A stretch of 64,000 bases of DNA from Candidatus Wallbacteria bacterium (GCA_016190005.1 JACPRK010000139.1:24717-88716); one strand, 5' to 3'. Positions 11,103 through 50,523 are shown, counted from the first letter of the stretch. Made by a program: numbers and translations. Notes: generated by a model from the sequence alone, not told the origin.

Positions 11103-11790
11103 TCATTCCACGTCTGGCGAGAGCTGCGCCTTCAGCGCCTTCTTGGCGGCGCGCGTCATCAGGACGGCGGCGCCGATCGTGGCGGCCAGCCCCAGCCAGT
11201 AGAGCCCCTGCCCCATGGGACCGGGGACCGAGCGCCGCGGCCGGTAAGAAGCTCCGAGGCGCTGGTGACCACCGAACCCAGATAAACATACATGACAGTC
11301 CCGGGGAGCATGCCGAGGAACGACCCAAGAACGTAGTCCCGGAAGCCAACCCGAGTCAAACCCAACGCGTAGTTGAGCAAGTTGAAGGGAATCACCGGGG
11401 AGAGGCGCAGGAGCAAGACGACTCGGAACCCGTCTCGCTCCACGGCCCTGTCTATCGCCTCGAAGCGCGGCTGCCGCCGGAGCCGGCTCTCGACCCACGG
11501 TCTGGCGATCGACCTTCCCAGGAGAAAGGCCGCTGTAGCCCCCAGAACACTGGCCGGAGACACCAGCAGACTGCCGCCGATCGGTCCGTAGGCGAACCCG
11601 GCGCCGAGGGTCAGGACCGATCCCGGCAGCATCGTGATCGTGGCGGCGACGTAGACGATTTCATAGACAATCGCCCCTTCGACGCCATGCTGGCGGGCCC
11701 ACTCGACGACGAGAAGCAGCGATTGCGAGAGCGTATTGATGGCGGCCTCCTCTGCGATCCGAGACTCTCGACGTCCCGCGCGGTCGAGGG
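11103..11790 (-). CDS. DedA/TVP38/TMEM64-family membrane protein, copy 1, interrupted by an apparent 1-nt frameshift near 11215
   Basis: ...VEWARQHGVEGAIVYEIVYVAATITMLPGSVLTLGAGFAYGPIGGSLLVSPASVLGATAAFLLGRS...RLSPVIPFNLLNYALGLTRV matches the paralog at 41547-42254. After PVPWGRG the homologous C-terminus (GLYWLGLAATIGAAVLMTRAAKKAL) continues in another frame, which is ORF 11103-11498. No canonical start codon was found at the N-terminus. Confidence 0.55.
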
Positions 11791-11860
11791 TAACGCCGCC
11801 GGAGCGTGACCCGGGACCTCCTGGCACGTCTCCTCCTTCGAACCGCAAGGAGCCCCCACC

Positions 11861-14479: not shown

Positions 14480-16033
14480 TCAGCGTCTCCAGGCGAGAAT
14501 CGTCGACAGGACCTGCTTGACGAGCGGCGTCAGGCGCGTGCGGTTCCACGCGTCTCCCGCGCGCTTGGCGACCTCAGACTGGGTGGGGTAGGGGTGGACT
14601 GTCGACGCGATCTTGCCGAGCCCAATTCCCTGGGTCATCGCCAGCGTGAGCTCGGCCAGCAGGTCTCCGGCGTGCCGTGCCACGAGGGTCGCGCCAAGAA
14701 TCCGGTCCGAGCCTTCTCGCAGGACGACTTTCAGCAATCCCTCGGTCTCCCCGTCCAGGATTGCCCTGTCCACGCCGTCCATCGGTATACGCACGACGGT
14801 CGTGGCCATGCCTCTGCTTCTGGCCTGCTCCTCGGTGAGGCCGACGTGGGCGAGCTCCGGATCGGTGTAGGTGCACCAGGGTATCGTCAGGTCCGAGACC
14901 TTCTGCCTTCCGAAGAAGAGCGCGTTCTTCAGGACGATGCGGGCCATGGCGTCCGCGGCGTGCGTGAATTGAAAGGCAGAGCAAATGTCGCCGGCCGCAT
15001 AAACGTCGGGGTTGGACGTCCTCAGGTACTCGTCGACCTCGATGCCCTTGGCGTTGTACCGCACACCCGCGGCCTCGAGCGCCAGGCCGTCCAGGTTGGG
15101 TACCCGTCCGGCGCTGACGAGCACGTTGTCGACTTCGACATCCAGCGGCCCTTCGTGCGACGTCGCATAGAGGCGCGTGGTACCGTCTTCCCGGCGCACC
15201 TTCAGATCCTTTCCGCAGCAATGAAGTCGAACGCCGTCGCGGTCCAGGGCGGCGCGCACAATCTCCGAGAGCTCAGCGTCCTCGCGCGGAAGAATCCCGT
15301 GCATGGCCTCGAAGAGATGGACCTCGCTGCCGAAGCGGCGAAACGCCTGAGCCATCTCGCATCCGATGGGACCGGCGCCGATGATGCCGAGCCGCCTGGG
15401 CAACGAGGTGAGCGAGAAGAGATTCTCGTTCGTGAGAAAGCCGGCTTCGGAGAGACCGGGCACGGGCGGGGCACCGGCACGGGCGCCGGTGGCGATGACG
15501 GCCCGGCTGAACAGCAGGCGCTGTCCGGACACCTCCACCGTATCAGGCCCTGCGAAGCGGCCGGCGCCCAGGAACACGTCGACGCCCAGATCAGCAAATC
15601 GTTTCACCGAGTCGTGCGGGCTGATCCCGGCGCGCAGTCGGCGCATCCGCCGCATGATCGCCGGGAAGTCGACCCGAATCGCTTCGAAGGGGACCTCGAT
15701 GCCGAGCGCCGAGGCGTCCCGGACGTCAGCGATGGCCCGGGAGGATCGGAGCAATGCCTTCGATGGAACGCAGCCGACGTTCAGGCAATCGCCGCCAAAG
15801 AGCCGGCGCTCCACGAGCGCCACCCGCGCTCCGAGCGAGGCGGCCCCCGCGGCGGAGACGAGTCCTGCCGTGCCGGCGCCGATCACCACCAGGTTGTACC
15901 TGCCGGCCGGCTCCGGGTTGACCCAGTCCGCGGGGTGCACGTTGGAAGCGAGCGCGCGGTTGTGCTCGTCCAGCGGCTCTAGTTCCGGAACCTGAAGCGA
16001 GAGACTCTCGAAGTCGGATGCGGAAGACGTCAC
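14480..16033 (-). CDS. FAD-dependent pyridine nucleotide-disulfide oxidoreductase (mercuric-reductase-like, no NmerA domain)
   Basis: GAGTAG FAD motif, redox-active GGDCLNVGCVPSK, NAD motif GIIGAGPIGCE, and a C-terminal dimerisation domain TVHPYPTQSE. Confidence 0.85.
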   Translation of the reverse strand: MTSSASDFESLSLQVPELEPLDEHNRALASNVHPADWVNPEPAGRYNLVVIGAGTAGLVSAAGAASLGARVALVERRLFGGDCLNVGCVPSKALLRSSRAIADVRDASALGIEVPFEAIRVDFPAIMRRMRRLRAGISPHDSVKRFADLGVDVFLGAGRFAGPDTVEVSGQRLLFSRAVIATGARAGAPPVPGLSEAGFLTNENLFSLTSLPRRLGIIGAGPIGCEMAQAFRRFGSEVHLFEAMHGILPREDAELSEIVRAALDRDGVRLHCCGKDLKVRREDGTTRLYATSHEGPLDVEVDNVLVSAGRVPNLDGLALEAAGVRYNAKGIEVDEYLRTSNPDVYAAGDICSAFQFTHAADAMARIVLKNALFFGRQKVSDLTIPWCTYTDPELAHVGLTEEQARSRGMATTVVRIPMDGVDRAILDGETEGLLKVVLREGSDRILGATLVARHAGDLLAELTLAMTQGIGLGKIASTVHPYPTQSEVAKRAGDAWNRTRLTPLVKQVLSTILAWRR

Positions 16034-16395
16034 AAGGCCCTTCTTTCACTTACCCGGGGAACTGCGCCGGCGCGACACAGCACTGGTGATGGCCCCGGGT
16101 TGGAGAGACGACGGACATTGCGACTCGTCACGCTTTGAATCCGGGGCCACGACGTACGCTCGGCTCCGGGCGCGGAGCGTTACCCGCCGGTACGCCGCTC
16201 GTCTAGCACCCTGAGAATGACGCACAAGAAGCTGCTGCCGGGCTCTACAGGGAGAGAGCCGGGCAACTGCAGAGGAGTTTAGCAGAGCGGAACCGAGGGG
16301 ACTGCTCGGCGCAAGGGCTTCGCACCCGGCGGCGTTCACGACAACCTCCACCGCTGAAGTCGACGCAGTATCCTGGTCTCCTCGAGGAGGCACCG

Positions 16396-23400: not shown

Positions 23401-24237
23401 TCACGAAGTCTCGATCCGGGAGAAGTAGCCATCTTCGATCCAGTCCTGAGACCACCTCCGAAGTCTCGCGGAGAGCTCGTCGGGCTCCAGAGCCGCGTCG
23501 CGTTGCACCTTCTTCATCGCCTTGGCAAGGCACCGGCCCTGCACGAGCAGGCTCAGCAACCTGTATTCGTCCTGAGAGAGCTCCCTTCTCCAGACGCTCC
23601 AGTTCTTGCGATAGAGGACCGTGAAACTGGGGGCCGCGTCCGGCAAGGGAACGGACTCTCCACGCTTGACCGCCTGCAAGTAGGCGTTGACCGGGTACCC
23701 GAAGGCGCGCAACTGCAGCGTGGGAGCGGCGATGAAGACCGCGCCGCTCCAGTCGGCCGGACGCAGCGTCGCCAGCCCGCGCGCATCGAACGGACCCGGC
23801 TCCTCTGCGTCAAAGACGAGCGTCATCGCAAGCTCGAGCTCGGCCAGATCCGCGAGTACCGCACAGCTTTTCAGGTCACGGAGTGAACGGAGAAAACGAG
23901 GGAGGTGACGACCGAGCTGATTGAGGTTGGGATGAACAGACGGGTACGCCCGGATGTACTCGTCGACGAGCGACTTCCATGCCTCGGCACCGAGCGCGTC
24001 TTTCAACACGGGATAGTCCGTCGCCAGGGCATCTCGCATCCTGAGGGGGTACATCTGTGCGTAGACGGCCAGGCGATCGACAGGCTGCAGTCTGGCCGCG
24101 GGCAAGACGATCTCCTCAGCGCGGGCATCCAGGTGTCGTCGCGCATCGTCGGAATCGACTCCGCACCACGCGCAGTGAGGATGGGTCAGGACAGCCTGCA
24201 TCCATCCTTGGAGCTGACGAAGGGAGGGCTCAGCCAT
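23401..24237 (-). CDS. DUF2063-family protein, partner of the MNIO enzyme (BufC/MbnC-like)
   Basis: Immediately downstream of the DUF692 gene, overlapping by about 8 nt. N-terminal LRQLQGWMQAVL is typical of DUF2063. Confidence 0.7.
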   Translation of the reverse strand: MAEPSLRQLQGWMQAVLTHPHCAWCGVDSDDARRHLDARAEEIVLPAARLQPVDRLAVYAQMYPLRMRDALATDYPVLKDALGAEAWKSLVDEYIRAYPSVHPNLNQLGRHLPRFLRSLRDLKSCAVLADLAELELAMTLVFDAEEPGPFDARGLATLRPADWSGAVFIAAPTLQLRAFGYPVNAYLQAVKRGESVPLPDAAPSFTVLYRKNWSVWRRELSQDEYRLLSLLVQGRCLAKAMKKVQRDAALEPDELSARLRRWSQDWIEDGYFSRIETS

Positions 24238-25095
24238 GGACGGCCTCCGCTCGCAGTGGGGCCGAATCCGTGAGAGGACGGCCGTGACGCGCCTTCATCG
24301 CCTCGGCCAGGAGCACGTCGAAGGGCGGAATGTCCGCGTCCCACTCGTAGATGGTGGTGCGTCCTCCGCTCAGACGGGTCGCAAGCTCGTGGAGCGCCCA
24401 CACCCCGGGGAGCGCGTGGTCCGAGTGGGTGTCGATCAGGTGGGTGCCAACGTCGGTGTGGCCGGCCATATGGAAGTAGCCGACTCGCTCCCACGGGACG
24501 GCTTCGAGGTACTCGACCGGGTCGAAGCCGCAATTGACACTCGAGACGTAGACATTGTTGACGTCGATGAGGAGGCCGCAATCGGCCTCGTCGCACATCC
24601 GGGCCAGGAACTCCCACTCGGGCATCGAACTGTGCGTGAACGCCAGGTAGGTCGACGGGTTCTCCAGGAAGAGGGGCCGTTCCAGCAGGTCCTGGACGAT
24701 GCGAATCCTCGCCACGACGTGCGCAAGCGTCTGCTCGTCGTAGGGCAGCGGCAACAGGTCGTGGAGGTTTCGCCCCGCGACCCCGGTCCAGCAGACGTGA
24801 TCGGAGACCATCCTGGCGCGCGTTCGATCGGCCAGCGCCTTGACGCGTCTGACGTAGGCGCGATCCAGAAGGTCGGTGCTGCCGATGGAGAGGGAAACTC
24901 CGTGCATCACCACAGGGTAGCGGGCGGCCACCCGATCCAGCACGTGGAGCGGGCGCCCCCCCGTGTCGAGATAGTTGTCGGTGAGGACCTCGAACAGATC
25001 GACGGCCGGCCAGTGCGCGAGGACGTGGCCGTAATGGACCGTCCGGAGGCCGACGCCGACTCCCAGGTCGGTGGCAATGGACTGAATGGAGGACA
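24230..25095 (-). CDS. MNIO (multinuclear non-heme iron oxidative) enzyme, DUF692/UPF0276, BufB/MbnB-like
   Basis: MSSIQSIATDLGVGVGLRTVHYGHVL...TDNYLDTGG...HGVSLSIGSTD...ENPSTYL...HMAGH is the DUF692 TIM-barrel pattern. The ORF track extends it upstream to 25441, but that extension is an alternate-frame artefact of the precursor repeat. Confidence 0.8.
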
Positions 25096-25203
25096 TGAGT
25101 CGGTTTTCAGCGGAAGGAGGGCAGGCGACGGAGCCGGGGGGGATCGAGTGGGGGATGGCCCGCCGCCTGCCTCCAGGTACGGAGCGTTCAGGTGAGAAGG
25201 ACG

Positions 25204-25638
25204 TCAGCCCTTGTGGGGCACGGCACAACCGCCGAGACCCTTGCAGTCGTTCTTGCCCGCGCACTCGTTCTTCTCGGTCTTGCAGCCGCCGAGACCCTTG
25301 CAGTCGTTCTGTCCCTTGCACGCGTGCTTGGCGTCCTGGCTGGCACAGCCGCCCAGGCCCTTGCATTCGTTCTTGCCGGCGCACTCGTGCTTGTCCGTCT
25401 TGCAACCGCCGTGACCCTTGCACGAGTTCAATCCCTTGCACGCGTGGCGATCGGTCTTGGCCTCCTCGCTCGCAGCCTTGCTGGAGCCCTCCCCGGACCG
25501 ATCGGGTGTGCGCTCCGCTGCCGCCGGCGGCTCCTGTGAGCTGCCGCTACCCCCGTCCTGAGAGTAGACCAACCCGGCACCGGCGAGCACACCCGAGGCG
25601 ATCGCGCTGAGCATGAGTGTCTTGTTCCTGCGATTCAT
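25204..25638 (-). CDS. bufferin-like RiPP precursor: Sec signal peptide plus a 12-Cys tandem-repeat core
   Basis: AGGAGG RBS. Signal peptide MNRRNKTLMLSAIASGVLAGAGLVYSQ. The core is HACKGLNSCKGHGGCKTDKHECAGKNECKGLGGCASQDAK + HACKGQNDCKGLGGCKTEKNECAGKNDCKGLGGCAVPHKG, with 12 Cys in CKGxGGC / CAGKNxC repeats. It lies directly upstream of the MNIO and DUF2063 genes. Confidence 0.7.
   Translation of the reverse strand: MNRRNKTLMLSAIASGVLAGAGLVYSQDGGSGSSQEPPAAAERTPDRSGEGSSKAASEEAKTDRHACKGLNSCKGHGGCKTDKHECAGKNECKGLGGCASQDAKHACKGQNDCKGLGGCKTEKNECAGKNDCKGLGGCAVPHKG
25207..25446 (-). repeat. in-frame tandem duplication (2 x ~117 nt) encoding the 6-Cys core unit of the precursor
   Basis: Two near-identical 39-codon units. 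The same repeat produces the spurious overlapping ORFs 25192-25539(+), 25211-25414(+) and the 5-prime extension of ORF 24230-25441(-). Confidence 0.6.
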
Positions 25639-25899
25639 CCGAAGCAGCCTCCTTTGAGAAATCGATGGTTCGGTTCCGCCGAGATACGACGCAGCGGGGC
25701 CGGCAAGGTAACTGCGGTTGCCACAGATTTCGTCGAGGACGGTGGCCAGGTGATTCGCGCCATCCCGTTACCTGGCGCCCACTGGGCCGTCTTCCGGCCA
25801 TGAAGACGATGATGGTCACGAGCAGCCTCGCTCGCGTGCTCCGGGCGCCGAGATGGGCTGACACATCGGTCCTCGCGACGGAGGCGGTGCTGGCCAGCC

Positions 25900-26520
25900 G
25901 TGAAAGACGACAGGAAAGTGGGTTCGGCGGTCTCGGCGGATGACGACGAGGTACTGCGGCGATCGTCGACTCAGGAACCTGAGGCCTTCGGGGTCCTGGT
26001 CGGGAGGCACACTACCGGAGTTCTCCGGTTCCTCATGCGGCGTACCGCCGACCGAGCGATGGCCGAAGATCTCGTGCAGGAAACGTTTCTGAGGGCGTAC
26101 TCAGCTCGACGTGCCTGGCGCTCGGAAGGGAGCGTCCTCGGCTGGCTGCTCACGATCGCACGCCGTCTCCTGATTTCGCGCATGCGGAGGTTACGACGGA
26201 GACTGACCGTGCCCCTGGAAGGCGCATCGGAGCGCGAACTCCAGAGCCGGATCGGTGTTCCGGAAGAGACCGTCCTACGGCGAGAGCGTCACGACGCGGT
26301 CCGGCGTGAAGTGTTGCGTCTGAGGCCGAAACACAGGGACGTGATCGTGCTGTGGCTCCACGGAGAGTTGCACTACACCCGGATGGCCGGGCTGCTGGGA
26401 ACGACCGAGGCTCGGGTGAGGCAGCGTGTCTTCCACGCCAAGGAAGCTCTCGAGGGGCGTTTGCACGAGTTCCGACCGGGCGAGGGAGCCGGCGGCAGGC
26501 GACGAACTGCGAAGGGCTGA
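25900..26520 (+). CDS. ECF-type RNA polymerase sigma factor, divergent from the precursor gene
   Basis: DLVQETFLRAYSARRAW...GWLLTIARRLLISRMR (region 2) and DVIVLWLHGELHYTRMAGLLGTTEARVRQRVFHAKEAL (region 4). Confidence 0.8.
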   Translation: MKDDRKVGSAVSADDDEVLRRSSTQEPEAFGVLVGRHTTGVLRFLMRRTADRAMAEDLVQETFLRAYSARRAWRSEGSVLGWLLTIARRLLISRMRRLRRRLTVPLEGASERELQSRIGVPEETVLRRERHDAVRREVLRLRPKHRDVIVLWLHGELHYTRMAGLLGTTEARVRQRVFHAKEALEGRLHEFRPGEGAGGRRRTAKG

Positions 26521-34731: not shown

Positions 34732-35979
34732 TCATAGGCCGCAGCAAGAGTCCCCCTGCTGGGTCGCGCCAGCTTCCAGCAGCGTGGCCTGGTAGCCGGC
34801 CTGGCGGACAGCCTCTCTGAGAGCCTGGATGTTTGGCTTCGGACCGGCGGCCGCGAAACCGACCCGGGCGGTCTTCGTGGGGTAATCGACTGCGGCATTG
34901 AGGACCCCCGGAACGCTCAGGAGAGCCTTCCGAACGTGGGCGGTGCACGCTTCGCAGGACATGCCGCCGATGGACAGCGCCTGCTGCCCGGCGGCGACAC
35001 CGGCCGCCGGCGCGGCGGGCGCGTCGCTGATTCCAATGAGACTGCCCGCATAGTGGGGAAACGCTGCGCCTACGATGGCAAGGAAAGTGGCGAGCCAGAG
35101 CCCCATGCGCCCGAGGCGCCGGGTCCTGGGCGCGGGGACGGCACATGCCTCACCCGATGCACATGCCCGTTCACGGGAGTAAGCGAAGTAGAAGCCCGCG
35201 GCCAGAAGCAGTCCGGTGAGCGTCAGAAAGAGCGGGCGCCATTGCTCGAAGACGGCCCCGGCTCCGGCAGCAGACAGACCCAGGCCGACGAGCATCAGCG
35301 GCAGCCAGCAACACGCGGAGGCCACGACGGCGGCAACGACGGAGCCGGCAAGCAGCCAGGATGTCTTCGGGCCGGTCTGGGCGCGGGAGTCTGGCGCGAC
35401 GGTAGACGATTCCTGCCCGGAGACACGGCAGCACGCCTGAATCACCGAGGGTTCTTCCGAGAGAGCCACAGCCGGCCCTCGCTGGTCGGAGGCGACGGAA
35501 TCGGAGCGCGGATCTCCGTGAACCGCCAGCTGTTGACGGACGACCGTTCCCACGTTGCCCAGACAGCATGAGCCTTGCGGGTTCTCGCGCTCGCAGGCGC
35601 ACTGTCCCTCCTTGACCTTCTGCCGGATGTCGTCCGGCACGGTGCTCTTTCCCGTACGGAGAACCTCCTCGCCTATCGAGGCCGCCGAGTGGTTGAAGCA
35701 GTAGCAGACCGGGCAAGAGAGATCGCTCTCTTTCTGCCAGACAGGGACGGCCACGTCGGAGCGAAGAAAGCGCGCCCCCTGGACGGCCCCGAAGTAGACG
35801 ATGTCGCAATTCTGGGCTGGACAGAACCGATACACGCCGCTCCCGACCCTGCCTCGGCAGGGCTCCCTCAAAAGGGAGCTCAAGGTCTCGTTTGCGACGG
35901 TCTTCCCTCGGGTGCCGCAACCGGGACAGTCGGCGGGCGGGCCGCCTGGGGCAGTGATGGAGCAGCACTTTTCGGACAT
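34732..35979 (-). CDS. fusion: N-terminal Cys-rich metal-binding domain + MerT-like transporter + C-terminal MerP-like HMA domain
   Basis: The N-terminal ~150 aa hold 17 Cys (CC, CPGC, CPVCYC, CAC, CC). Transmembrane region with a vicinal Cys pair, ASACCWLPLMLVGLG (MerT-like). C-terminal GMSCEACTAHVRKALLSVPGV is the HMA GMxCxxC motif. The protein ends ...GDSCCGL. Confidence 0.65.
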   Translation of the reverse strand: MSEKCCSITAPGGPPADCPGCGTRGKTVANETLSSLLREPCRGRVGSGVYRFCPAQNCDIVYFGAVQGARFLRSDVAVPVWQKESDLSCPVCYCFNHSAASIGEEVLRTGKSTVPDDIRQKVKEGQCACERENPQGSCCLGNVGTVVRQQLAVHGDPRSDSVASDQRGPAVALSEEPSVIQACCRVSGQESSTVAPDSRAQTGPKTSWLLAGSVVAAVVASACCWLPLMLVGLGLSAAGAGAVFEQWRPLFLTLTGLLLAAGFYFAYSRERACASGEACAVPAPRTRRLGRMGLWLATFLAIVGAAFPHYAGSLIGISDAPAAPAAGVAAGQQALSIGGMSCEACTAHVRKALLSVPGVLNAAVDYPTKTARVGFAAAGPKPNIQALREAVRQAGYQATLLEAGATQQGDSCCGL

Positions 35980-36094: not shown

Positions 36095-36403
36095 TCATGT
36101 TTGCTTCAACAGAGTTGCGAGGACCTGGCTGACCTTTTCGAGGCGTTCGTCGCGGCCGCCTTTCATGCAACTGTCCACGCACGCCTTGAGCTCATGCTCC
36201 AACAGATTGGCTGCGACCTGGTTGAGCGCAGCGCGCACCGCGGCCACCTGCAGGAGAATCTCGTCGGCGCAGCGGTGAGCCAGCACCATGGTCCGCAGTG
36301 AACGCACGTGGCCCTCGATGCGCGCGAGACGGTCGGCGAGCCGCTTCTGGGCGTCTTCGTCTAGATAGGGTTTCGGAACCGGTTTCAGGTGGGACTTGGC
36401 CAT
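36095..36403 (-). CDS. csoR: CsoR/RcnR-family metal-sensing transcriptional repressor
   Basis: GAGGAA RBS. MAKSHL...LARIEGHVRSLRTMVLAHRCADEILLQVAAVRAALNQV...HELKACV matches the DUF156 fold and its metal-ligand positions (C, H, C). Confidence 0.8.
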   Translation of the reverse strand: MAKSHLKPVPKPYLDEDAQKRLADRLARIEGHVRSLRTMVLAHRCADEILLQVAAVRAALNQVAANLLEHELKACVDSCMKGGRDERLEKVSQVLATLLKQT

Positions 36404-36428
36404 TGCGTTCCTCACATCTTGTAGTATA

Positions 36429-36447
36429 TATCCCCCCAGGGGGGATA
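36429..36447. promoter_or_regulatory. perfect inverted repeat TATCCCCCC-A-GGGGGGATA; predicted CsoR/RcnR-type operator
   Basis: 9-bp arms with a 1-bp spacer, about 26 nt upstream of the csoR-like start codon. The G/C-tract palindrome is characteristic of CsoR/RcnR operators. Confidence 0.55.
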
Positions 36448-36636
36448 GCAACCCCTTCTCCTTTCCCACGAAACCGAACCCGAGCGCCTTGGCGAGGTGG
36501 CCGAGCAAAGGGGCTCATTCGTCGTCGCCGCTGGTTAGTGTCGGCTCCAGGGATCGCGCTCGGGCGTTACCCGCACGACCGAAGCTCGTCAGTCCTGCTT
36601 GGGAACTACCTGGGGCACGCCGAAAGGAGGCGCTTC

Positions 36637-37614
36637 ATGCAAACACCCTCTGAGCAGAGCCTCTCGAGTAGAGTGCGAACCCTGCTTCGCGCCGCCATCT
36701 TGTCGCTCGTTCTGGTGGCAGCCCTGCTGCACAGGTTTGCACCAGGGGCGCTCGCGGTCGGTTTGGATCTGACGGATCTGCGAGTCCCTCGAGCGGAGCT
36801 GAGAGGCGGCGGCCCACCGAAGGATGGGATTCCGTCGCTGACGGACCCCGCGGTCGTCAGCCCCGAGCAGGTGGATTTCCTGCAGGAAGACGACTGGGTC
36901 CTCGGTGTCGAGCTCGGTGCCCAGGCGCGGGCCTATCCGCTGAAGCTGCTGACCCAGCACGAGGCCGCCAACGACGTGGTGGGCGGCCAGCCGATCGTCG
37001 CTACCTACTGACCGCTCACCGAGAGCGGGGTGGTCTACTCCGCGCGGCTCGACGGTATGCGGCTGACGTTCGGCATCTCCGGACTCCTCTACCGCAGCAA
37101 CGTCGTGCTTTACGATCGCAGAAGCGGCAGCCTCTGGTCCCAGCTCGCGGGCGCCGCGATATCGGGCAAGTACAGTGGCCGGCAGCTCGTGGAGCTCCCG
37201 TCCCTGGTGACGACCTGGGCGAGCTGGCGCCGTGCACGCCCCGACTCGTCGGTCGCTCTGGCTGCAAGTCTCCGGTACTCGGCCGACCCATACGCCGACT
37301 ATTGGGGCTCGTCCGAAACGATGTTCGACGTGGGCCCCATCGACACGCGATTGCCGGCCAAGGCATTGGTGTTCGGCGCCGTCGTGGGGAAACTCGCGAA
37401 GGCGTATCCACTGAGCGAGTTTCCGTCGACCAACCAAGTTATGCGGGACCGAATCGGCAACGTGAAGGTTTGGCTTTCTCGGGGCGAGACCTCCAGGGAC
37501 TTTCGGATGACGGACTTGACGGGCCGGCGAGTGAGCGGATCGGTCATGTACTGGTTCGCCTGGTCGAAGTTCCATCCGGACACTGCCCTCTGGGCCGGGC
37601 CGGCCGGGCAATGA
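36637..37614 (+). CDS. DUF3179-family protein with in-frame UGA (putative selenocysteine) at the first Cys of the conserved TYCPLC motif
   Basis: AAAGGAGG RBS before ATG 36637. Signal/anchor N-terminus. ...LLTQHEAANDVVGGQPIVATY-[TGA 37009-37011]-PLTESGVVYSARLDGMRLTFGISGLLYRSNVVLYDRRSGSLWSQL continues in the same frame as ORF 37030-37614. A hairpin follows 13 nt downstream. Confidence 0.65.
37025..37043 (+). other. putative bacterial SECIS-like hairpin (stem GCGGGG/CUCCGC, loop UGGUCUA)
   Basis: Starts 13 nt 3-prime of the in-frame UGA. The loop contains GGUCU. Confidence 0.45.
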
Positions 37615-37874
37615 CGAGGCTCGAGCCAGCTCTCCGCTACCGGCCGCTGAACTCCATTCGGCCGCCGCGGTATCAACCCAAGAGGAGCTTCGCCACCATG
37701 GCGGAGAGCGCCAGCGCCAAGGGCAGCGTGAAGATTCACGCGAGCGCGATGTTCGCAGCGAAGAGCACGGGCCCGGCGGTCACGAGACTGGCTGAGAAAC
37801 CATGTCCCAGGCTCATGGCCGTGATGCGCGGGCTCATCGTCGACTACGCGGCGCCGGCGGCGGCCACCCAGCAA

Positions 37875-38678
37875 TCACTTGCCACCCTTGCCGGTTTCAG
37901 AGCCGGCAAGCCTCAGCGCTCGCAGCGCATCTACCACGTCGGCGGGCTCGGAGCGCTGGGTGTAATCCGCGCTCACGAATCGATAGCGGATAACGCCCTC
38001 GCGATCCAGAACGAACGTCCCCGGCACCGGAAGCTCCCCGGAGCGGTCCGCATTGAACTTCGCGAGATCGATGCCGAAGCCGCGGTACATCTCCGCCAGC
38101 TTGGCGGGCACCTGGAAGACGAGACCGAACCCACGCGCCACCTGGTTGCCCAGGTCGCTGAGGACCTCGAAATCCAGCTTGAGCTTCTCCTGCGTCATGA
38201 GCGCGAAGTCGGGCTTCTCGGGCGAGATTGCAACCAGAGAGCCCCCGGCTGCCCGAATGTCGGGCAGGGCTTGTTGCAGAGCATCCAGCTCCGCGTTGCA
38301 GTACGGTCACCAATGCCCTCGGTAGAACGCGACGACCACCGGGCCCTTCGCCAGCAATTCGACCGAGGATACGGTCTTACCGCTCGCGTTAGGCAAGCGA
38401 AAGCCGGGCGCCCTCTGCCCGACCTTCAGGCTCCGTTCCTCGACGCCCGTGCGCCGAACTTCGTCCAGGGCGGCTCGCGCCACCGCGGCCTTCTCCGCGG
38501 GCATCTTCTTCGCCGACTCGCTTCGCATGGCGTCCAGCTTCGAGGCCAGCGGCCGCGGATCTGCCTCGGCCGCCGCGGCCACTGCGCCGGCCGCCAGTAA
38601 CGCCGAAAGCAAAATTCGACTCGAGAGCCCAGTCGTTGTGTCGGTTCCTATCTGCCTGATGGCTTTCGACATGAACAC
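37875..38678 (-). CDS. periplasmic peroxiredoxin-like (AhpC/TSA-Redoxin family) protein with in-frame UGA (putative selenocysteine) in a W-U-P-Y-C motif
   Basis: Signal peptide. ...GPVVVAFYRGHW-[TGA 38309-38307]-PYCNAELDALQQALPDIRAAGGSLVAISPEKPDF...TFVLDREGVIRYRF. ORFs 38307-38678 and 37875-38198 are the same frame, and the region between them is open. A hairpin follows 12 nt downstream. Confidence 0.7.
38276..38294 (-). other. putative bacterial SECIS-like hairpin (stem GCGGAGC/GCUCUGC with one G-U pair, loop UGGAU)
   Basis: Begins 12 nt 3-prime of the UGA in the Prx-like gene. Confidence 0.4.
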
Positions 38679-39003
38679 CTCGCGTTCCTCCGTTTCTCGG
38701 ATCAGTATAGTCGCGGCTTCGTCAACCGAGTCGGCGCCTCAATCCTCGGCGGCCGTGATATCGGCGTTCGCGATCAGTCGTGACCGGCTGAACGTGTCGA
38801 CGAGCGCGCCTGCCCGAGGTAACGCGAGAACGAGACTCGACCGGCGCCGTTACCCGGCTCGTCGTGCGACGTCTTCGAAGGTGATGCCGGAGTTGCTCTT
38901 CAGATGTGTCACCTGCCTTCTGGCACCCTGGATCCTGGTCGCGGCCGCCCTTAAGGGCCGGTGGTTTGTCTGCGACGGGCTAATGCGCCACGAGTAACTC
39001 CCG

Positions 39004-40476
39004 ATGCAGCGGAGAATCGTCGGGCTCAGCCTGGGTCTGATGACGTTCTTTGCGGTCGCGACTGGGGTTTTTCACTATCTGCGAACGTCCACGGACCTCG
39101 AAGCCTTGGCTGACCAGCGCCTGCGGTACATCGCCGCCACGGCCGCGGCGGGCCTGGACGGCGATGCCCACGCGGAGCTCAACAGCTGCCTGGACAATCA
39201 GTGCCCCAACTACGCGAAGCTCACCGAGTACCTTCGAGCCGTCCAGACATAAAATGATCTCTCGACGGAGGTGTACACCCTCGCCCGAGAAGGCGACCGA
39301 ACGCGGTTCGTCTTGAGGACCCAGCACGAAGCCGACTTCGGAGTGTCTTACGATCTGCGTCCGGAGATGTTGGCGACGTTCGACGAGGGCAAGGTCGTCA
39401 CAACCGGTGTCTACTCGGATCGCTACGGCTCCTGGTTGTCGGCCTACGCGCCCGTCCGGAACAAACAGGGGAGGGTCGTCGCCTTGCTGGAAGTCGACTA
39501 CAAGGCCGAGGAGCTTGCTGCCATTCTCCGAAGAGACGCGGCGCAGTCGGCGGTGGTTTGGCTCCTGGGGCTGACGGTCACGGGTCTGCTAGCCCTGCGT
39601 CTTTCGCGGCAGATCGCCGAGCCGCTGACGCATCTGACCGCCGCGGTCGACGCCGCCGCATCCGGAGATGAAAGTCATGAGCTGCCGACCGATGCACCGG
39701 CGGAAATCGGGCTCCTGGTCCGCCGCTTCGGCGAGATGCGAGACGCCGTTGCCAACGCCCGGCGGCAGGAGCGGCTGGCGGTCGTGGGGCAGATGGCCGG
39801 AACGATGATCCACGACCTGCGAGGCCCGCTCACGGTGCTCATGGGAATGACCGAGCTGATGCAGGACGAAGAGGACGGCATCGCGCGAAAGCAGCTCGGT
39901 GTGCGCGTGTTCGAGCACATCAATCGCATCGAGGCGATGGCCCGAGACGTTCTCGACTTCTCGCGGGGTGTGTCGAACATGGAGCGAAGCCGGTTCCGCG
40001 CCGCCTCGGTGCTGGAGTCCGTGGCTGCGGACCTTGCCTCGATTGCGACTAGAAAGGGCGTCGTTCTGCGCGTAGACCCCGAGTGGGACGGGCTCGTCTG
40101 GGGGGACCAGGAGAAGCTGCTCAGGCTCGCCCACAACCTCGTGAAGAACGCGATCGAGGCGACGCCAGCAGGAAGGCGAGTGGTGGTGCGAACGCGCGCC
40201 GGCGCCGGGCGATGGCAGCTTCTCGTGGAGGATGAGGGCACCGGGATTTCACCGCAGGTGGCAGCGAGGCTTTTCGAGCCGTTCGCGACTCATGGAAAGT
40301 CGGGAGGTACGGGGCTGGGTCTGGCGATGGTGAAGAGTGTCGCCGAGACTCACGGAGGAAGCGTCACTCACGCGGCGCGGCCGGGCGGCGGCACGGTTTT
40401 CAGGGTCGAGCTGCCGATCGATCGACGCGAGCCTGGCGGGCAGAAGCAGGAAGCCCGTGAGCAAAAGGCCGCGTGA
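39004..40476 (+). pseudogene. sensor histidine kinase, paralog 2, interrupted by an in-frame TAA at 39250-39252
   Basis: 39004-39252 and 39271-40476 are co-linear with paralog 1: ...YLRAVQT-TAA-NDLSTEVYTLAREG against ...YLRRIEQGNGLNTEIYTLVREG. The stop falls where paralog 1 has Gly/Gln. Downstream H-box and ATPase motifs are intact. Confidence 0.55.
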
Positions 40477-40608
40477 CGCCGGCAAAGCGTTACCCGGCGC
40501 GCGAGGCGGCGTCGAGTCGGCAACTGATCCCGCGAAATCGACGTCGCCGCCGCAGGCGCCCGAGCCTTGCTTCACCGGCGCCGGTCCCGGCCTTCCGCGG
40601 AGGGAGCA

Positions 40609-41196
40609 TCAAGCCGCGGGACGTTTCCTGCGAAGCCGTTTGCCAGCCTCCGGCTCCGCCCAATCGGACTCCAGCTCCACGCCGAGGCCGAGGGCCAGTC
40701 GATTGACGAAGTTGAAGTACGCTGTCACCGCGGCAATGTCGTGAATCGACCGGTCATCGTGCCCGATCTGACGCAGCAGCTCCACGTCGGCTCTCCTCAT
40801 CTCGGCAGGCGTGCGGGTGAGTTTCACCGCGAAATGCAGCATGGCCAGATTAGCCGGCTCCAGACGTGCGGTGCGGAAGTCGCGAGCGATCGCCTCGACG
40901 AGATCCTCGTCGCGGGTGAGACGGAGAAGGACCTCTCCGTGATGCTGCAGTCAGTAGTGGCAGTCGTTGGCCTGCGAAACCACGACCGCGATCATCTCGC
41001 GCTGGCGGCGCGTGAGCGGCGAGCCTCCGAACATCAATGCCTTGTAGAGCGCCATGTGCCCCTCCATCCCTTCCGGATGGACGCCGCTGACGGCCAGGAT
41101 GGCGGGGGCGCTGGCCTGGTCGCCCAGGAGACGTTTGTACGTCTCCTTCAAACGGACCGGGGCTTCGGATGGTTGAATCTCCGTTATCCACGACAT
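40609..41196 (-). CDS. AhpD-like / carboxymuconolactone-decarboxylase-family peroxidase-related protein with in-frame UGA (putative selenocysteine) in a C-H-Y-U motif
   Basis: ...MIAVVVSQANDCHY-[TGA 40953-40951]-LQHHGEVLLRLTRDEDLVEAIARDFRTARLEPANLAMLHFAV... ORFs 40951-41196 and 40609-40842 share a frame, which is open across the gap. A hairpin follows 10 nt downstream. Confidence 0.7.
40921..40940 (-). other. putative bacterial SECIS-like hairpin (7-bp Watson-Crick stem ACGGAGA/UCUCCGU, loop GGUCCU)
   Basis: Begins 10 nt 3-prime of the UGA in the AhpD-like gene. The loop contains GGUC. Confidence 0.45.
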
Positions 41197-41546
41197 AGTC
41201 TATCCTTTCACTCCGGAGGTGACGCCGCGGGCCCGAGCGCGGCGCTCATCGTGTCCGCAGCGAGCGCAGTCGGCTCACGCTCCAGACGCCCCGAGGCGCT
41301 CGAGGTAACGGCTGTCGGCTCGGCGTGCTACAGACCGTCGCCGCGCGGCATCGGTCCGGCCGGCATCGATATCCTGCTCTCGGAGGCACGGCTTCTGCTC
41401 GCAGGCGTTACCCAGGCCCGAGCCGGGCGTCCAGACCAGTGGAGCACGCGAACCTGCCGTTCCCGGCGGCGATCTCTTCGGAGGCGGGCCCATACGGTAG
41501 AGGAGTCGACTTGAGCAGAGCCAACAGCGACCGTGCGACATTCAAG

Positions 41547-42254
41547 ATGGCCAGCCTGGCGATTGCACTTGCCGCGCTGCTGGCGGTGGCAGCGAGTTTG
41601 CCCATTGGCGCGTGGCTCTTGCGGACAGTGGAGTGGATCCGATCGGCTGGCGTGGCCGGCGCGCTCGCGTACGGCGCGATTTACGTGCTGGCCACGGTCT
41701 TGATGCTGCCGGGTTCCGCGCTGACACTGGGGGCCGGATTCGCTTACGGTCCCCTCTTGGGGACCCTTCTCGTTTCGCCCGCGAGCGTGCTCGGCGCGAC
41801 GCTGGCCTTTCTACTGGGACGGTCCGCCGCTAGAGAATGGGTGGTAGGCAAGATGACGGCCCATCCGCGGTTCGGAGCGGTGGACCGCGCCGTCGGCGAT
41901 CGTGGCTTCTTGCTGGTGATGCTGCTGAGACTATCGCCCTTGTTTCCGTTCAACTTGCTCAACTACGCGCTGGGCGCAACTCGCGTGAGGCTGCGCGACT
42001 ACGTGGTGGCATCCTTCGTCGGGATGCTTCCGGGCACGTTCCTGTACGTTTACCTGGGCTCCCTCGTCACCAGCGCAGGCGAGCTGCTCGGCGGTCAGCG
42101 GCCGGCGGCGGGGCCCTGGGGCAGGGGGCTCTACTGGGTCGGTCTGTTCGCAACTGTCGCTGTCGTGGCCTTCGTGACACGCTTCGCGAGACAGGCGCTG
42201 GATCGAGCTCTAGAATCGGCTGATGCCCGAACTTCCGAAGAGACGAAGTCATGA
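41547..42254 (+). CDS. DedA/TVP38/TMEM64-family membrane protein, copy 2, intact
   Basis: MASLAIALAALLAVAASLPIGAWLLRTVEWIRSAG...LPGSALTLGAGFAYGPLLGTLLVSPASVLGATLAFLLGRS...RLSPLFPFNLLNYALGATRV. Paralog of 11103-11790. Confidence 0.75.
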   Translation: MASLAIALAALLAVAASLPIGAWLLRTVEWIRSAGVAGALAYGAIYVLATVLMLPGSALTLGAGFAYGPLLGTLLVSPASVLGATLAFLLGRSAAREWVVGKMTAHPRFGAVDRAVGDRGFLLVMLLRLSPLFPFNLLNYALGATRVRLRDYVVASFVGMLPGTFLYVYLGSLVTSAGELLGGQRPAAGPWGRGLYWVGLFATVAVVAFVTRFARQALDRALESADARTSEETKS

Positions 42255-42265
42255 ATCCGAACCCG

Positions 42266-42610
42266 GATCACCCTACAAGTTCACTCACGCAGCCGACGTG
42301 ATGGCCCGAATCGTGATCGCCAACGCCCTGTTCGGCAGCCGTGGCTCGGGCAGTGCTCTGACGATCCCGTGGTGCACCTGCATCGATCCCGAGATCGCCC
42401 ACGTGGGATTGTACGAGGCCTACGCGCGCAAGCGCGGCCTCGCCGTAGACACCTACACTCAGCCGCTGTCGGAGGTGGACCGCGCCATTCTTGACGGCGA
42501 GGAGGAGGGGTTCGTGCGAGTGCACGTACGGCAGGGATCCGACACGATCCTGGGCGCCACCGTCGTGGCGCGCCATGCCGGGGAGATGATTTCGGAGCTG
42601 ACGCTAACGA
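42266..42610 (+). pseudogene. C-terminal fragment of a pyridine nucleotide-disulfide oxidoreductase (dimerisation domain only)
   Basis: KFTHAADVMARIVIANALFGSRGSGSALTIPWCTCIDPEIAHVGLYEAYARKRGLA...ILGATVVARHAGEMISELTLT aligns with residues ~365-490 of the 14480-16033 protein. It has no N-terminal FAD/NAD domains, and the frame degenerates after ELTLT. Confidence 0.6.
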
Positions 42611-43262
42611 GGAAGATCTCGTCGGGCCGTGCCTGGACCGGCTGCAACAATTTGCGCCGGGCACGGAGATTCTCGTTGTCGACGGCGGCAGTACCGACTC
42701 CACGCGCGAGCGGGTGTCTGCTCGGCCCTGGACGACGTTGATTTCTGCGGGAAGGCCTCCCCGCGGCATGCAGATGAACGCTGGAGTTCACGTCACGCGC
42801 GGCGACATCCTGCTACTCCTACACGTCGATATGGAGCTGCCCCCGGACGCTGTGACTCAGATCGAGAAGGCGACCGAGGGTCCCCAAGTCGTGGGAGGCG
42901 GGTTCCGCAAGCGCCACCGCGAAGCCCCGCCGTTGCTTGTCCTCCAGGACTGGTGGCTGAACACGTTGCGTTCGGGACTTCAGCGCCATCTGGTCGGGAC
43001 CAACGGCATCTTCGTGAGGAGAAGCGTCTTCGAGCACTTGGGAGGATTCAGAGAGTGGTCACTGCTGGAAGACGTGGAGTTCCCGGACCGACTGCGGGAC
43101 CTCGGTCGGGTCGCGTTTTTAACGGGTCCAGTGCTGGTCTCGGCGCGCAAGTATCTGCGGCATAGGACGCTGAGGCAGCGTCTCACGAATGCCCGAGTGA
43201 TGGCGGGATATGGGTGGCTGGGCATTCACCCCGAACAGCTCGCTTCGATCTGCGGGGCCTAG
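42600..43262 (+). CDS. family-2 glycosyltransferase (TIGR04283-like), N-terminally truncated
   Basis: ...EEDLVGPCLDRLQQFAPGTEILVVDGGSTDSTRE...GMQMNAGVHVTRGDILLLLHVDMELP...GIFVRRSVFEHLGGFREWSLLEDVEFPDRLR is a GT2 fold. The first ~15 residues and any start codon are missing, replaced by the oxidoreductase fragment. Confidence 0.55.
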   Translation, partial: DANEEDLVGPCLDRLQQFAPGTEILVVDGGSTDSTRERVSARPWTTLISAGRPPRGMQMNAGVHVTRGDILLLLHVDMELPPDAVTQIEKATEGPQVVGGGFRKRHREAPPLLVLQDWWLNTLRSGLQRHLVGTNGIFVRRSVFEHLGGFREWSLLEDVEFPDRLRDLGRVAFLTGPVLVSARKYLRHRTLRQRLTNARVMAGYGWLGIHPEQLASICGA

Positions 43263-49123: not shown

Positions 49124-49966
49124 TCAACCCTTTCGACCGCTTTTTCCCGGCTCGGGTAACGCCCCCGTGCGCGCACGAACGAGGACATAGCCGCCATGCG
49201 GCTCCCGCCAGATCACGACCTCGCACGGAGATCTCGACGCGGCCGGAGACGCAGGGTGCACCACCCGGCGGCTCGTCAGGGAACCGACGCCGAAATCCTC
49301 GAGCCGCAGTTGAAACAGAGACTCCGGGCCGCCCGGTCCCTGCCAGTACGTGTAGGCCACCGGGTGGCTGCCCAGCCGGCACGAGCGGCCGCCCATGAGC
49401 GTGTGCCCGGGTCCGAGTGCCGGGAAGCTCACGGGGAAGCCCATCGAGCTCGACAAGAACTCGGCGACCTGCCGGGGGTCGGAGCCCTTCACCTGCAGAT
49501 GGGGCGTGTTCATGTGATCCTGGGTCGCCAGCAGGGCCAGCGTCTGAAGCGTGGCCTCCTTGTCCGACCGGAGGCTCGAGATCCCGAACCAGACCATCAG
49601 GACCACCAACGCGATCGACGACGCCAGCGCGAGTCGGCGCCCGGCGAAGAGGCCCAGCGACCTCATGCGTCCAGGCGGTCGCGAATCCAGTCTCTGCACC
49701 TGCGGTTCCGCTCCGGCCTCGGGGGGGGCGCATTGGTCCGCAAGCAAGAGCAGCCGCGGCACCAGTCCGGGGGGCACTTCGACCTGCCTCAGCGCGATGC
49801 GCAAGGCCTCGTCCCCACGGATGAGCTCGAGCCATTCCTGCCGGGCCCACTCCGGACCGCGCGCCACGTCTTGCTCCAGTTGACGGCGCACTGGATCATC
49901 GGGCGGCAAGACCGAAGCCTCGGCCATCGCTTGCCGCAGAAGCTGTCGATCGTCGCGGCCGCTCAT
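49124..49966 (-). CDS. anti-sigma factor-like protein with periplasmic C-terminal domain
   Basis: Overlaps the sigma-factor stop by 4 nt. A central transmembrane helix LALASSIALVVLMVWFGI. Position and architecture are typical of ECF anti-sigma factors. Confidence 0.5.
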   Translation of the reverse strand: MSGRDDRQLLRQAMAEASVLPPDDPVRRQLEQDVARGPEWARQEWLELIRGDEALRIALRQVEVPPGLVPRLLLLADQCAPPEAGAEPQVQRLDSRPPGRMRSLGLFAGRRLALASSIALVVLMVWFGISSLRSDKEATLQTLALLATQDHMNTPHLQVKGSDPRQVAEFLSSSMGFPVSFPALGPGHTLMGGRSCRLGSHPVAYTYWQGPGGPESLFQLRLEDFGVGSLTSRRVVHPASPAASRSPCEVVIWREPHGGYVLVRARTGALPEPGKSGRKG

Positions 49967-50523
49967 GGACTCCTCCGCTTCAAGGTAAGAACGTTACCCC
50001 GTTTGCCGGCGCTGTCGTCAAGCCGCTGTCGCAAGAAGCTACGGGCCCGGTGGACCCGAGAGAGCACCGTGCCCAGGGGCAGGTCGAGCTCTCGGGCCGT
50101 CTCCCGGCAACTGACTCCCAGTAACAGGACCATCAGAAACGGGAGCTTGAACCGATCGTCCATGGCGTCGAGTGCCGCTTGCAGCGGCTCCGAGCATTCC
50201 GAATCACCCTCCGACGCGTCCCGTGTGGGCGTGTCGGCGTCCTGGAGCAGCTCGACACTGTCGTCGACCTGGGGACGCCGTCCGAGATCGCGCAGCAGGT
50301 GCGCGTGGCGGAATCGCAGGATTCGGAATAGCCATGCCCGAGCGGAGGACGGTTCCCGCAGATCCGGCAGCGAACGCCAGGCTTCGGTGAAGGTCTCCTG
50401 GACCAGATCCTCCGCTGTTTCGCGGCGGCCCGTCAATCGGAAGGCGATCCGGAAGAGCTCCTCGGAGTGGTCGCGGACGAGCCGTTCGAAGAGGGGCCGG
50501 AGCTCGTTGGGAACGGTCTGCAT
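49963..50523 (-). CDS. ECF-type RNA polymerase sigma factor
   Basis: DLVQETFTEAWRSLPDL...RAWLFRILRFRHAHLLR (region 2) and FLMVLLLGVSCRETARELDLPLGTVLSRVHRARSFLRQRL (region 4). Confidence 0.8.
   Translation of the reverse strand: MQTVPNELRPLFERLVRDHSEELFRIAFRLTGRRETAEDLVQETFTEAWRSLPDLREPSSARAWLFRILRFRHAHLLRDLGRRPQVDDSVELLQDADTPTRDASEGDSECSEPLQAALDAMDDRFKLPFLMVLLLGVSCRETARELDLPLGTVLSRVHRARSFLRQRLDDSAGKRGNVLTLKRRSP

Follow-up and report, generated by a model that had tools for sequence, protein, structure and literature searches.

Three in-frame TGA codons at conserved redox cysteines point to clustered selenoprotein genes in a Candidatus Wallbacteria contig

A 64,000-nucleotide stretch of DNA from a metagenome-assembled genome (MAG) labelled "Candidatus Wallbacteria bacterium" (GCA_016190005.1, JACPRK010000139.1:24717-88716; hereafter the window, 66% GC) contains three separate redox genes, encoding a DUF3179 protein, a peroxiredoxin-like (Prx-like) protein and an AhpD-like protein, in which an in-frame UGA is very probably decoded as selenocysteine (Sec). 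In each gene the TGA stands where the family has an invariant or near-invariant Cys and is followed by a hairpin of the selenocysteine insertion sequence (SECIS) type, and TGA recurs at the same codon in relatives from unrelated organisms. The genes, their putative Sec codons and the predicted bacterial SECIS (bSECIS) hairpins are listed below, with coordinates counted from the first letter of the window.

36637..37614, + strand: gene 1, putative DUF3179 selenoprotein gene; 325 codons, U at codon 125, motif TY-U-PLT
37009..37011, + strand: putative Sec codon TGA of gene 1 (DUF3179)
37025..37043, + strand: predicted bSECIS hairpin of gene 1; GCGGGGU-GGUCU-ACUCCGC, 13-nt spacer, UGA-to-loop 21 nt, -10.0 kcal/mol
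37875..38672, - strand: gene 2, putative peroxiredoxin-like (AhpC/TSA) selenoprotein gene; motif W-U-PYC
38309-38307, - strand: putative Sec codon TGA of gene 2 (Prx-like)
38276..38294, - strand: predicted bSECIS hairpin of gene 2; GCGGAGC-UGGAU-GCUCUGC, 12-nt spacer, UGA-to-loop 19 nt, -11.2 kcal/mol
40609..41196, - strand: gene 3, putative AhpD-like (TIGR01926 peroxidase-related, CMD fold) selenoprotein gene; motif C-H-Y-U
40953-40951, - strand: putative Sec codon TGA of gene 3 (AhpD-like)
40921..40940, - strand: predicted bSECIS hairpin of gene 3; ACGGAGA-GGUCCU-UCUCCGU, 10-nt spacer, UGA-to-loop 18 nt, -9.8 kcal/mol

TGA codons at conserved cysteines

Translated straight through, each of the three genes has a single internal stop, and the rest is open and homologous: QPIVATY-stop-PLTESGVVY in gene 1 (peptide spanning the site, VATY-U-PLTESGVVYSAR), VVAFYRGHW-stop-PYCNAELD in gene 2 (GHW-U-PYCNAELDALQQ) and VVSQANDCHY-stop-LQHHGEV in gene 3 (ANDCHY-U-LQHHGEVLLR). 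The initial annotation, a reading of the window's sequence alone, had described three redox genes with in-frame TGA at conserved Cys positions and had called for alignment to Cys-containing homologues; the codons are present, and the alignments place all three at conserved Cys columns. The DUF3179 site is Cys in 118 of the 119 best full-length homologues, and the Prx-like site in 120/120, within the motif W-C-P-Y/F-C, to which WCPYC of PDB entry 3hdc aligns. At the AhpD-like site, Cys occurs in 113/120 homologues as part of C-x-Y-C (CFYC and CYYC in the PDB homologues 2pfx and 3c1l), while six homologues are recorded with "W". The DNA behind five of these six entries was retrieved: four (from the loci we number L162, L163, L164 and L167) have a TGA that the gene caller had translated with another code, and the fifth, P0189 (seen in L165 and L166), has a true TGG. 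Three residues beyond the DUF3179 site, C is found in 92 and T in 25 of the 119 homologues, giving a family motif of CPL[C/T] in place of the TYCPLC first proposed; the copy in the window reads U-P-L-T.

Domain models likewise span the TGAs. With Cys put at the stop, PF11376 (DUF3179) covers residues 62-316 of gene 1 (profile positions 1-292, 246 bits), PF00578 (AhpC-TSA) covers residues 84-230 of gene 2 (96 bits), and PF02627 (CMD) matches residues 41-106 of gene 3 (48 bits); NCBIfam TIGR01926 extends over residues 3-174 of gene 3, with 142 bits against a cutoff of 81.8. These matches bear out the earlier proposal to merge the open reading frames (ORFs) flanking each TGA, although for gene 1 the most likely start is ATG 36637, with AAGGAGG 6 nt upstream, rather than 36298. 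Gene 2 starts at ATG 38672. Judged by eye, the N-terminus of gene 1 is a hydrophobic signal or anchor and that of gene 2 resembles a signal peptide; gene 3 has no signal peptide. GenBank splits the genes, with exact matches to the fragments entered as separate proteins on a 99,956-bp contig of the "Candidatus Wallbacteria bacterium" MAG: MBI2944916.1 is the C-terminal piece of gene 1, whose DUF3179 N-terminus is unannotated in GenBank, MBI2944918.1 is the N-terminal piece of gene 2, and MBI2944922.1 and MBI2944921.1 are the two pieces of gene 3.

Before and after every one of the three TGAs, the GC content at third codon positions (GC3) is 0.74-0.90. A GC3 screen of every stop codon in the 64 kb found no other in-frame TGA that has coding signal on both flanks and is not a gene junction; the TGAs flagged at 11105, 11807, 23403 and 51572 proved to be junctions between genes or to belong to antisense frames, and were dismissed as Sec candidates. 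TGA also serves as a normal stop, as had been pointed out before: it terminates most Pfam-supported genes of the window, including all three selenoprotein candidates, and genome-wide reassignment of TGA is therefore ruled out.

The in-frame TGAs might instead be sequencing or assembly errors, given that the source is a MAG with at least one likely indel (in a frameshifted VTT gene). However, a separate Logan assembly of run SRR12113390 (1-kb contig) is identical across gene 1, TGA included, and errors would need to have hit the third base of an active-site Cys codon three times over. Homologous TGAs are, moreover, present in dozens of independent assemblies, and we consider the chance that all this is artefact to be close to negligible.

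SECIS-type hairpins

Each of the three TGAs is followed, 10-13 nt past the UGA, by a 7-bp stem. The published bSECIS model specifies a loop of 3-9 nt, a stem of 4-16 bp, a G in the first two loop positions, a UGA-to-loop distance of 16-37 nt and a minimum free energy (MFE) of -7.5 kcal/mol or lower (PMC13188914), and 3/3 hairpins agree with it. This model was applied in our own perfect-stem implementation, which also passes ~10% of random window positions, and a strict ad hoc hairpin pattern, written after the data had been seen, matches 1.2% of window positions; given a background of 10% or 1.2%, the chance of all three sites matching is ~1e-3 to 2e-6. The spacing of 10-13 nt claimed in the initial annotation stands for all three genes, but the GGUC-type loop claimed with it does not extend to gene 2, where the loop is UGGAU, with GG but without GGUC. 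Compared with the SelB-binding E. coli fdhF SECIS, the hairpins are alike in lying at a similar distance (~11 nt past the UGA in fdhF) and in their loops, with GGUC in genes 1 and 3 and GG in gene 2; they differ in having shorter stems, and a bulged U is not evident.

If UGA is read as Sec, the bacterial SECIS of each mRNA would be the 7-bp stem that begins 10-13 nt past the UGA and carries G in its apical loop. By analogy with the E. coli fdhF paradigm, SelB-GTP with Sec-tRNA(Sec) would bind the hairpin and deliver selenocysteine at the UGA, and translation would run on to the ordinary stop, which is likewise TGA (as in gene 1, whose own terminator is an ordinary TGA) but has no SECIS. The selenol would replace the attacking redox or metal-binding Cys of each family, and the predicted products would be an exported DUF3179 protein (U-P-L-T), an exported Prx-like thiol:disulfide oxidoreductase (U-P-Y-C) and a cytoplasmic AhpD-like protein (C-H-Y-U). 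Such decoding would imply selABCD in the organism.

TGA forms in related genomes

An alignment-driven scan with one genome per species yielded 80 related DUF3179 loci, 16 of which have TGA at the exact codon of gene 1. The MAGs carrying these Sec-type forms are labelled Desulfarculaceae, Desulfobacterales, Syntrophobacteria, Desulfobulbaceae, Binatia and Cloacimonadota; the other carriers are "Bacterium HR10" and a cultured isolate, Geothermobacter hydrogeniphilus. When the window copy is added to the 16 loci, a hairpin at equal offset is found in 12/17 TGA forms versus 3/64 Cys forms (Fisher p = 3e-8, though the relatives are akin to each other, so that this and the other p-values given here overstate independence), and the other five TGA forms have, by eye, 5-bp or bulged variants of the same stem. 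Across the 17 aligned sequences, 86% of cells in the 7-bp helix are paired, versus 72% when shuffled, and double compensatory changes occur at 5/7 pairs. This degree of covariation was reached by 0/500 shuffles, and the signal was lost on sliding the 3' arm.

The DUF3179 Sec forms nearly always lack the second Cys of the motif (16/17): UxxT occurs in 12, UxxS in 2, UxxA in 2 and UxxC in 1, whereas 58/63 Cys forms have CxxC (p = 1e-11 for the contrast, without phylogeny correction). A structure model was made for a Cys homologue 47% identical to the protein, and a Foldseek search of this model against PDB gave no whole-chain match. The DUF3179 fold is predicted to contain a Rieske-like domain, a result that holds at the level of the family.

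Two more Prx-like loci have TGA at the codon of gene 2, L003 (W-U-PFC) and L098 (W-U-PYC), and the hairpin is present in 3/3 TGA forms versus 0/82 Cys forms (Fisher p = 1e-5); one C-G pair of the window stem is U-A in L098. The metagenome scan for this family was keyed on [WF]YRG[GA]WCP, which needs a Cys codon and returned almost only Cys forms, and the Sec-form gene of L098 is a paralogue present there by chance. The TGA forms read G-H-W-U, while the Cys forms mostly read G-G-W-C.

For the AhpD-like family, TGA is found at the same codon in five loci: L059, L162, L163, L164 and L167. Model-compliant hairpins follow it in L059, L163, L164 and L167 (4/5 TGA forms), with a UGA-to-loop distance of 17-18 nt, and the stems differ across relatives by G-C to C-G and A-U to C-G swaps. 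These hairpins were judged singly, MAFFT/RNAalifold alignments being out of structural register owing to differing loop lengths. All AhpD-like TGA forms retrieved read C-H-Y-U, whereas the Cys forms vary at both x positions.

Alternative readings of the TGA codons

Several observations weigh against Sec decoding in the window. No tRNA-Sec, selA, selB or selD was found within its 64 kb. The MFE fold of 60 nt in gene 1 is a longer alternative helix with a loop that has no G, so that the register of the SECIS in this gene rests on comparative data; the hairpin statistics, in turn, draw on related sequences, and the strict pattern was chosen post hoc. Among the AhpD-like relatives, the TGA form L162 has a weak 4-bp stem only, and L165 and L166, from two independent metagenomes, have TGG (C-H-Y-W; L165:1916-1918, L166:407-409) and yet retain the hairpin (ACGGAGA-GGC-UCUCCGU) at the usual offset. 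Finally, truly damaged genes lie on the same contig, namely a histidine kinase with a TAA at 39250, a VTT paralogue frameshifted at ~11.2 kb and a truncated Pyr_redox_dim fragment (42223-42741), and nonsense lesions therefore do occur here.

The last of these points agrees with the view that the three genes are pseudogenes, in each of which TGC or TGT has changed to TGA and the ORF halves are decaying; Cys codons are, in addition, a single mutation away from TGA. Against this, the three lesions would all need to have struck an active-site Cys and nothing else in each gene, and GC3 is intact (0.74-0.90) on both flanks of the TGAs. A SECIS-type hairpin follows each TGA but is scarce or absent in Cys-encoding relatives (3/64 DUF3179, 0/82 Prx-like), and TGA is met again at the same codon in many unrelated genomes, whose stems show compensatory changes. 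Such a pattern is expected under Sec decoding but not under gene decay. Decay of all three genes is, in our judgement, extremely improbable.

Alternatively, UGA may be decoded in these genes as an amino acid other than Sec, through near-cognate read-through by Trp or Cys, through genome-wide reassignment, or through a tRNASec-like tRNA(Cys), which would deliver Cys by way of SelB. The inserted amino acid is not readable from sequence data alone, and the TGG (Trp) codon of the AhpD-like relative in L165/L166, with its hairpin kept, is compatible with such decoding; this TGG may be a recent Sec-to-Trp change. (In L165, the TGG gene lies directly downstream of a Cys-form Prx-like gene.) However, reassignment is excluded in a window where TGA is the main terminator and just three TGAs are in frame, the hairpins match a SelB-dependent SECIS model, all three families are established Sec/Cys pairs, and no unusual tRNA was found within the 64-kb window. 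Decoding as another amino acid therefore appears very unlikely. An 87-nt "tRNA-Cys(GCA)" called by ARAGORN at 50130-50216 (-) was rejected as a false positive: it lies inside an ECF sigma ORF (49963-50523) and has no Rfam match at E = 10.

Sec insertion, which the initial annotation had favored as the parsimonious explanation, accounts best for these data because the TGAs are equivalent to conserved Cys codons, the hairpins fit the bSECIS model, relatives share both the TGA and the hairpin, and Cys forms are mostly free of the hairpin.

Comparison with known selenoproteins

Published lists of bacterial selenoproteins already include all three families (PMC9312934, PMC13188914, PMC2398784), and the novelty first ascribed to these genes was overstated. 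DUF3179 (PF11376, UxxC/T) is a catalogued prokaryotic selenoprotein (PMC9312934, PMC13188914), with the entry credited to a study of Olavius algarvensis symbionts (PMC9312934 ref. 63, PMC1976440). Gene 1 shares with these proteins the Pfam family, Sec at the first position of CPL[C/T], the UxxT variant and a bSECIS directly after the UGA. Prx-like 1 (pfam00578, UxxC) was represented by 225 sequences in the Global Ocean Sampling (GOS) survey, where it was among the most abundant selenoprotein families (PMC2398784). Gene 2 resembles it in the AhpC/TSA fold, the W-U-P-Y-C motif and a SECIS hairpin 12 nt past the UGA, but differs in an N-terminal extension resembling a signal peptide; the closest of its Cys-form relatives bear the name "peroxiredoxin-like family protein". 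AhpD-like 1 (COG2128 / TIGR01926, CxxU), with 299 GOS sequences, was the fourth most abundant family in that survey (PMC2398784), and gene 3 shows no essential difference from it: the same C-x-x-U with Sec second, a TIGR01926 score above cutoff and a SECIS 10 nt past the UGA.

Adjacency of Prx-like and AhpD-like selenoprotein genes has also been reported before. The pair in the window likewise lies within a few kb but does not form one operon: a TAA-interrupted histidine-kinase gene separates genes 2 and 3, and gene 1, the third member of the trio, is on the opposite strand. The selenoprotein literature consulted makes no mention of DUF3179 in such a trio or paired with a Sec-form AhpD-like gene (as in L059) or Prx-like gene (as in L003).

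Genomic neighborhood

The surrounding 30 kb are rich in metal and thiol-stress genes. This context fits a general view of bacterial selenoproteins in redox and metal homeostasis but is not by itself proof of co-regulation. The genes had been termed a selenoprotein island; they do form a gene cluster, but not a compositional island, since GC is flat at 0.63-0.68 over 28-48 kb. With this composition and no integrase or transposase among the scanned neighbors, they do not qualify as a horizontally acquired island, and we found no evidence that the three form one operon or a mobile island.

The three genes could nevertheless constitute a functionally linked selenoprotein module for metal or oxidant stress, in which an exported DUF3179 protein with a Rieske-like fold, its lone selenol replacing CxxC, would act on metal or on reactive sulfur/oxygen species with Prx-like and/or AhpD-like partners. 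In line with this idea, Sec-form DUF3179 genes adjoin Sec-form genes of the other two families, AhpD-like in L059 (a Binatia MAG) and Prx-like in L003 (a Desulfarculaceae MAG), and the three genes of the window have many copper and thiol-stress genes around them. However, a Prx-like or AhpD-like neighbor is found at only ~3/16 Sec-form versus 3/64 Cys-form DUF3179 loci, the neighbors of Sec-form DUF3179 elsewhere are mostly unrelated and heterogeneous, and the AhpD-like protein seems cytoplasmic while the other two seem exported. We thus regard the module as a speculative and rather unlikely arrangement.

A repressor gene lies next to gene 1:

36095-36403, - strand: CsoR-family repressor gene

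Just upstream of it, a perfect 9+9 palindrome, TATCCCCCC-A-GGGGGGATA (36429-36447), sits within a sigma-70-like promoter of the - strand (TTGCTA, 17 nt, TATACT; 36423-36451). This palindrome, probably an operator for CsoR, falls in the intergenic region between the repressor gene and the divergently oriented DUF3179 gene. In none of the 80 related loci was a CsoR homologue seen beside DUF3179, which leaves a conserved CsoR-DUF3179 link unsupported. On the other side of the CsoR-family gene, 34732-35979 (-) encodes a 415-aa fusion of zf_CopZ, a MerT-like membrane region and a C-terminal HMA domain, with many CC/CxxC motifs; Sec forms are catalogued for both MerT-like and CopZ-family proteins, but in this copy Cys is used throughout. 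Genes for a TlpA-like redoxin, a thioredoxin and DsbD and a Cus-like RND efflux system are also nearby.

A bufferin-type operon for a copper-related ribosomally synthesized and post-translationally modified peptide (RiPP) occupies 23401-25638 (-), with an ECF sigma gene at 25813-26520 (+). Its BufA2 precursor (25204-25638) has 144 aa, a signal peptide and 12 Cys in CKGxGGC repeats (NCBIfam, 62 bits against a cutoff of 60), and is accompanied by the maturation genes for an MNIO/DUF692 enzyme (PF05114, 332 bits) and a DUF2063/HvfC-like protein, and then by a Ser/Thr kinase gene. Further away, 11810-14362 (+) encodes an 850-aa fusion of radical SAM/SPASM and an ArsM-like methyltransferase, which, at 241 bits, falls short of the cutoff of 263 set for the arsenite methyltransferase model; the adjoining gene (14480-16045, -) encodes an FAD-containing disulfide oxidoreductase (NF004991, 781 bits).

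Several genes of the window are damaged. The sensor histidine kinase gene between genes 2 and 3 (38998-40476; transmembrane, sensor, HAMP, HisKA and HATPase regions) is split by an in-frame TAA at 39250-39252 (+), EYLRAVQT-stop-NDLSTEVYTLAREGD, with good coding signal on both sides, and is likely either a pseudogene or the product of a base-call error. A VTT/DedA-family gene at ~11105-11800 (-) is 67% identical to its paralogue at 41325-42254 and has a frameshift near 11204-11237; in tblastn, frame -3 matches residues 24-194, and frame -2 matches residues 184-223. In the region of the paralogue (41325-42741, +), a 172-aa ORF comes after the VTT-domain gene. Its sole domain is Pyr_redox_dim, from a MerA-like or flavoprotein disulfide reductase, and it looks like the remnant of a VTT-flavoprotein fusion minus its FAD/NAD domain.

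Conclusions

For annotation, the consequence is that five GenBank fragments, one of them unannotated, become three full-length selenoproteins, and that Sec use should be recorded for the lineage labelled "Candidatus Wallbacteria". Known selenoprotein biology is not changed by this: it is a sound annotation fix that adds new members to known families. DUF3179 is a little-studied family in which about one-fifth of the closest genomic relatives are Sec forms, across several phyla, and the spread of these forms, their covarying SECIS, the loss of the second Cys and the predicted Rieske-like domain provide leads for the function of DUF3179.

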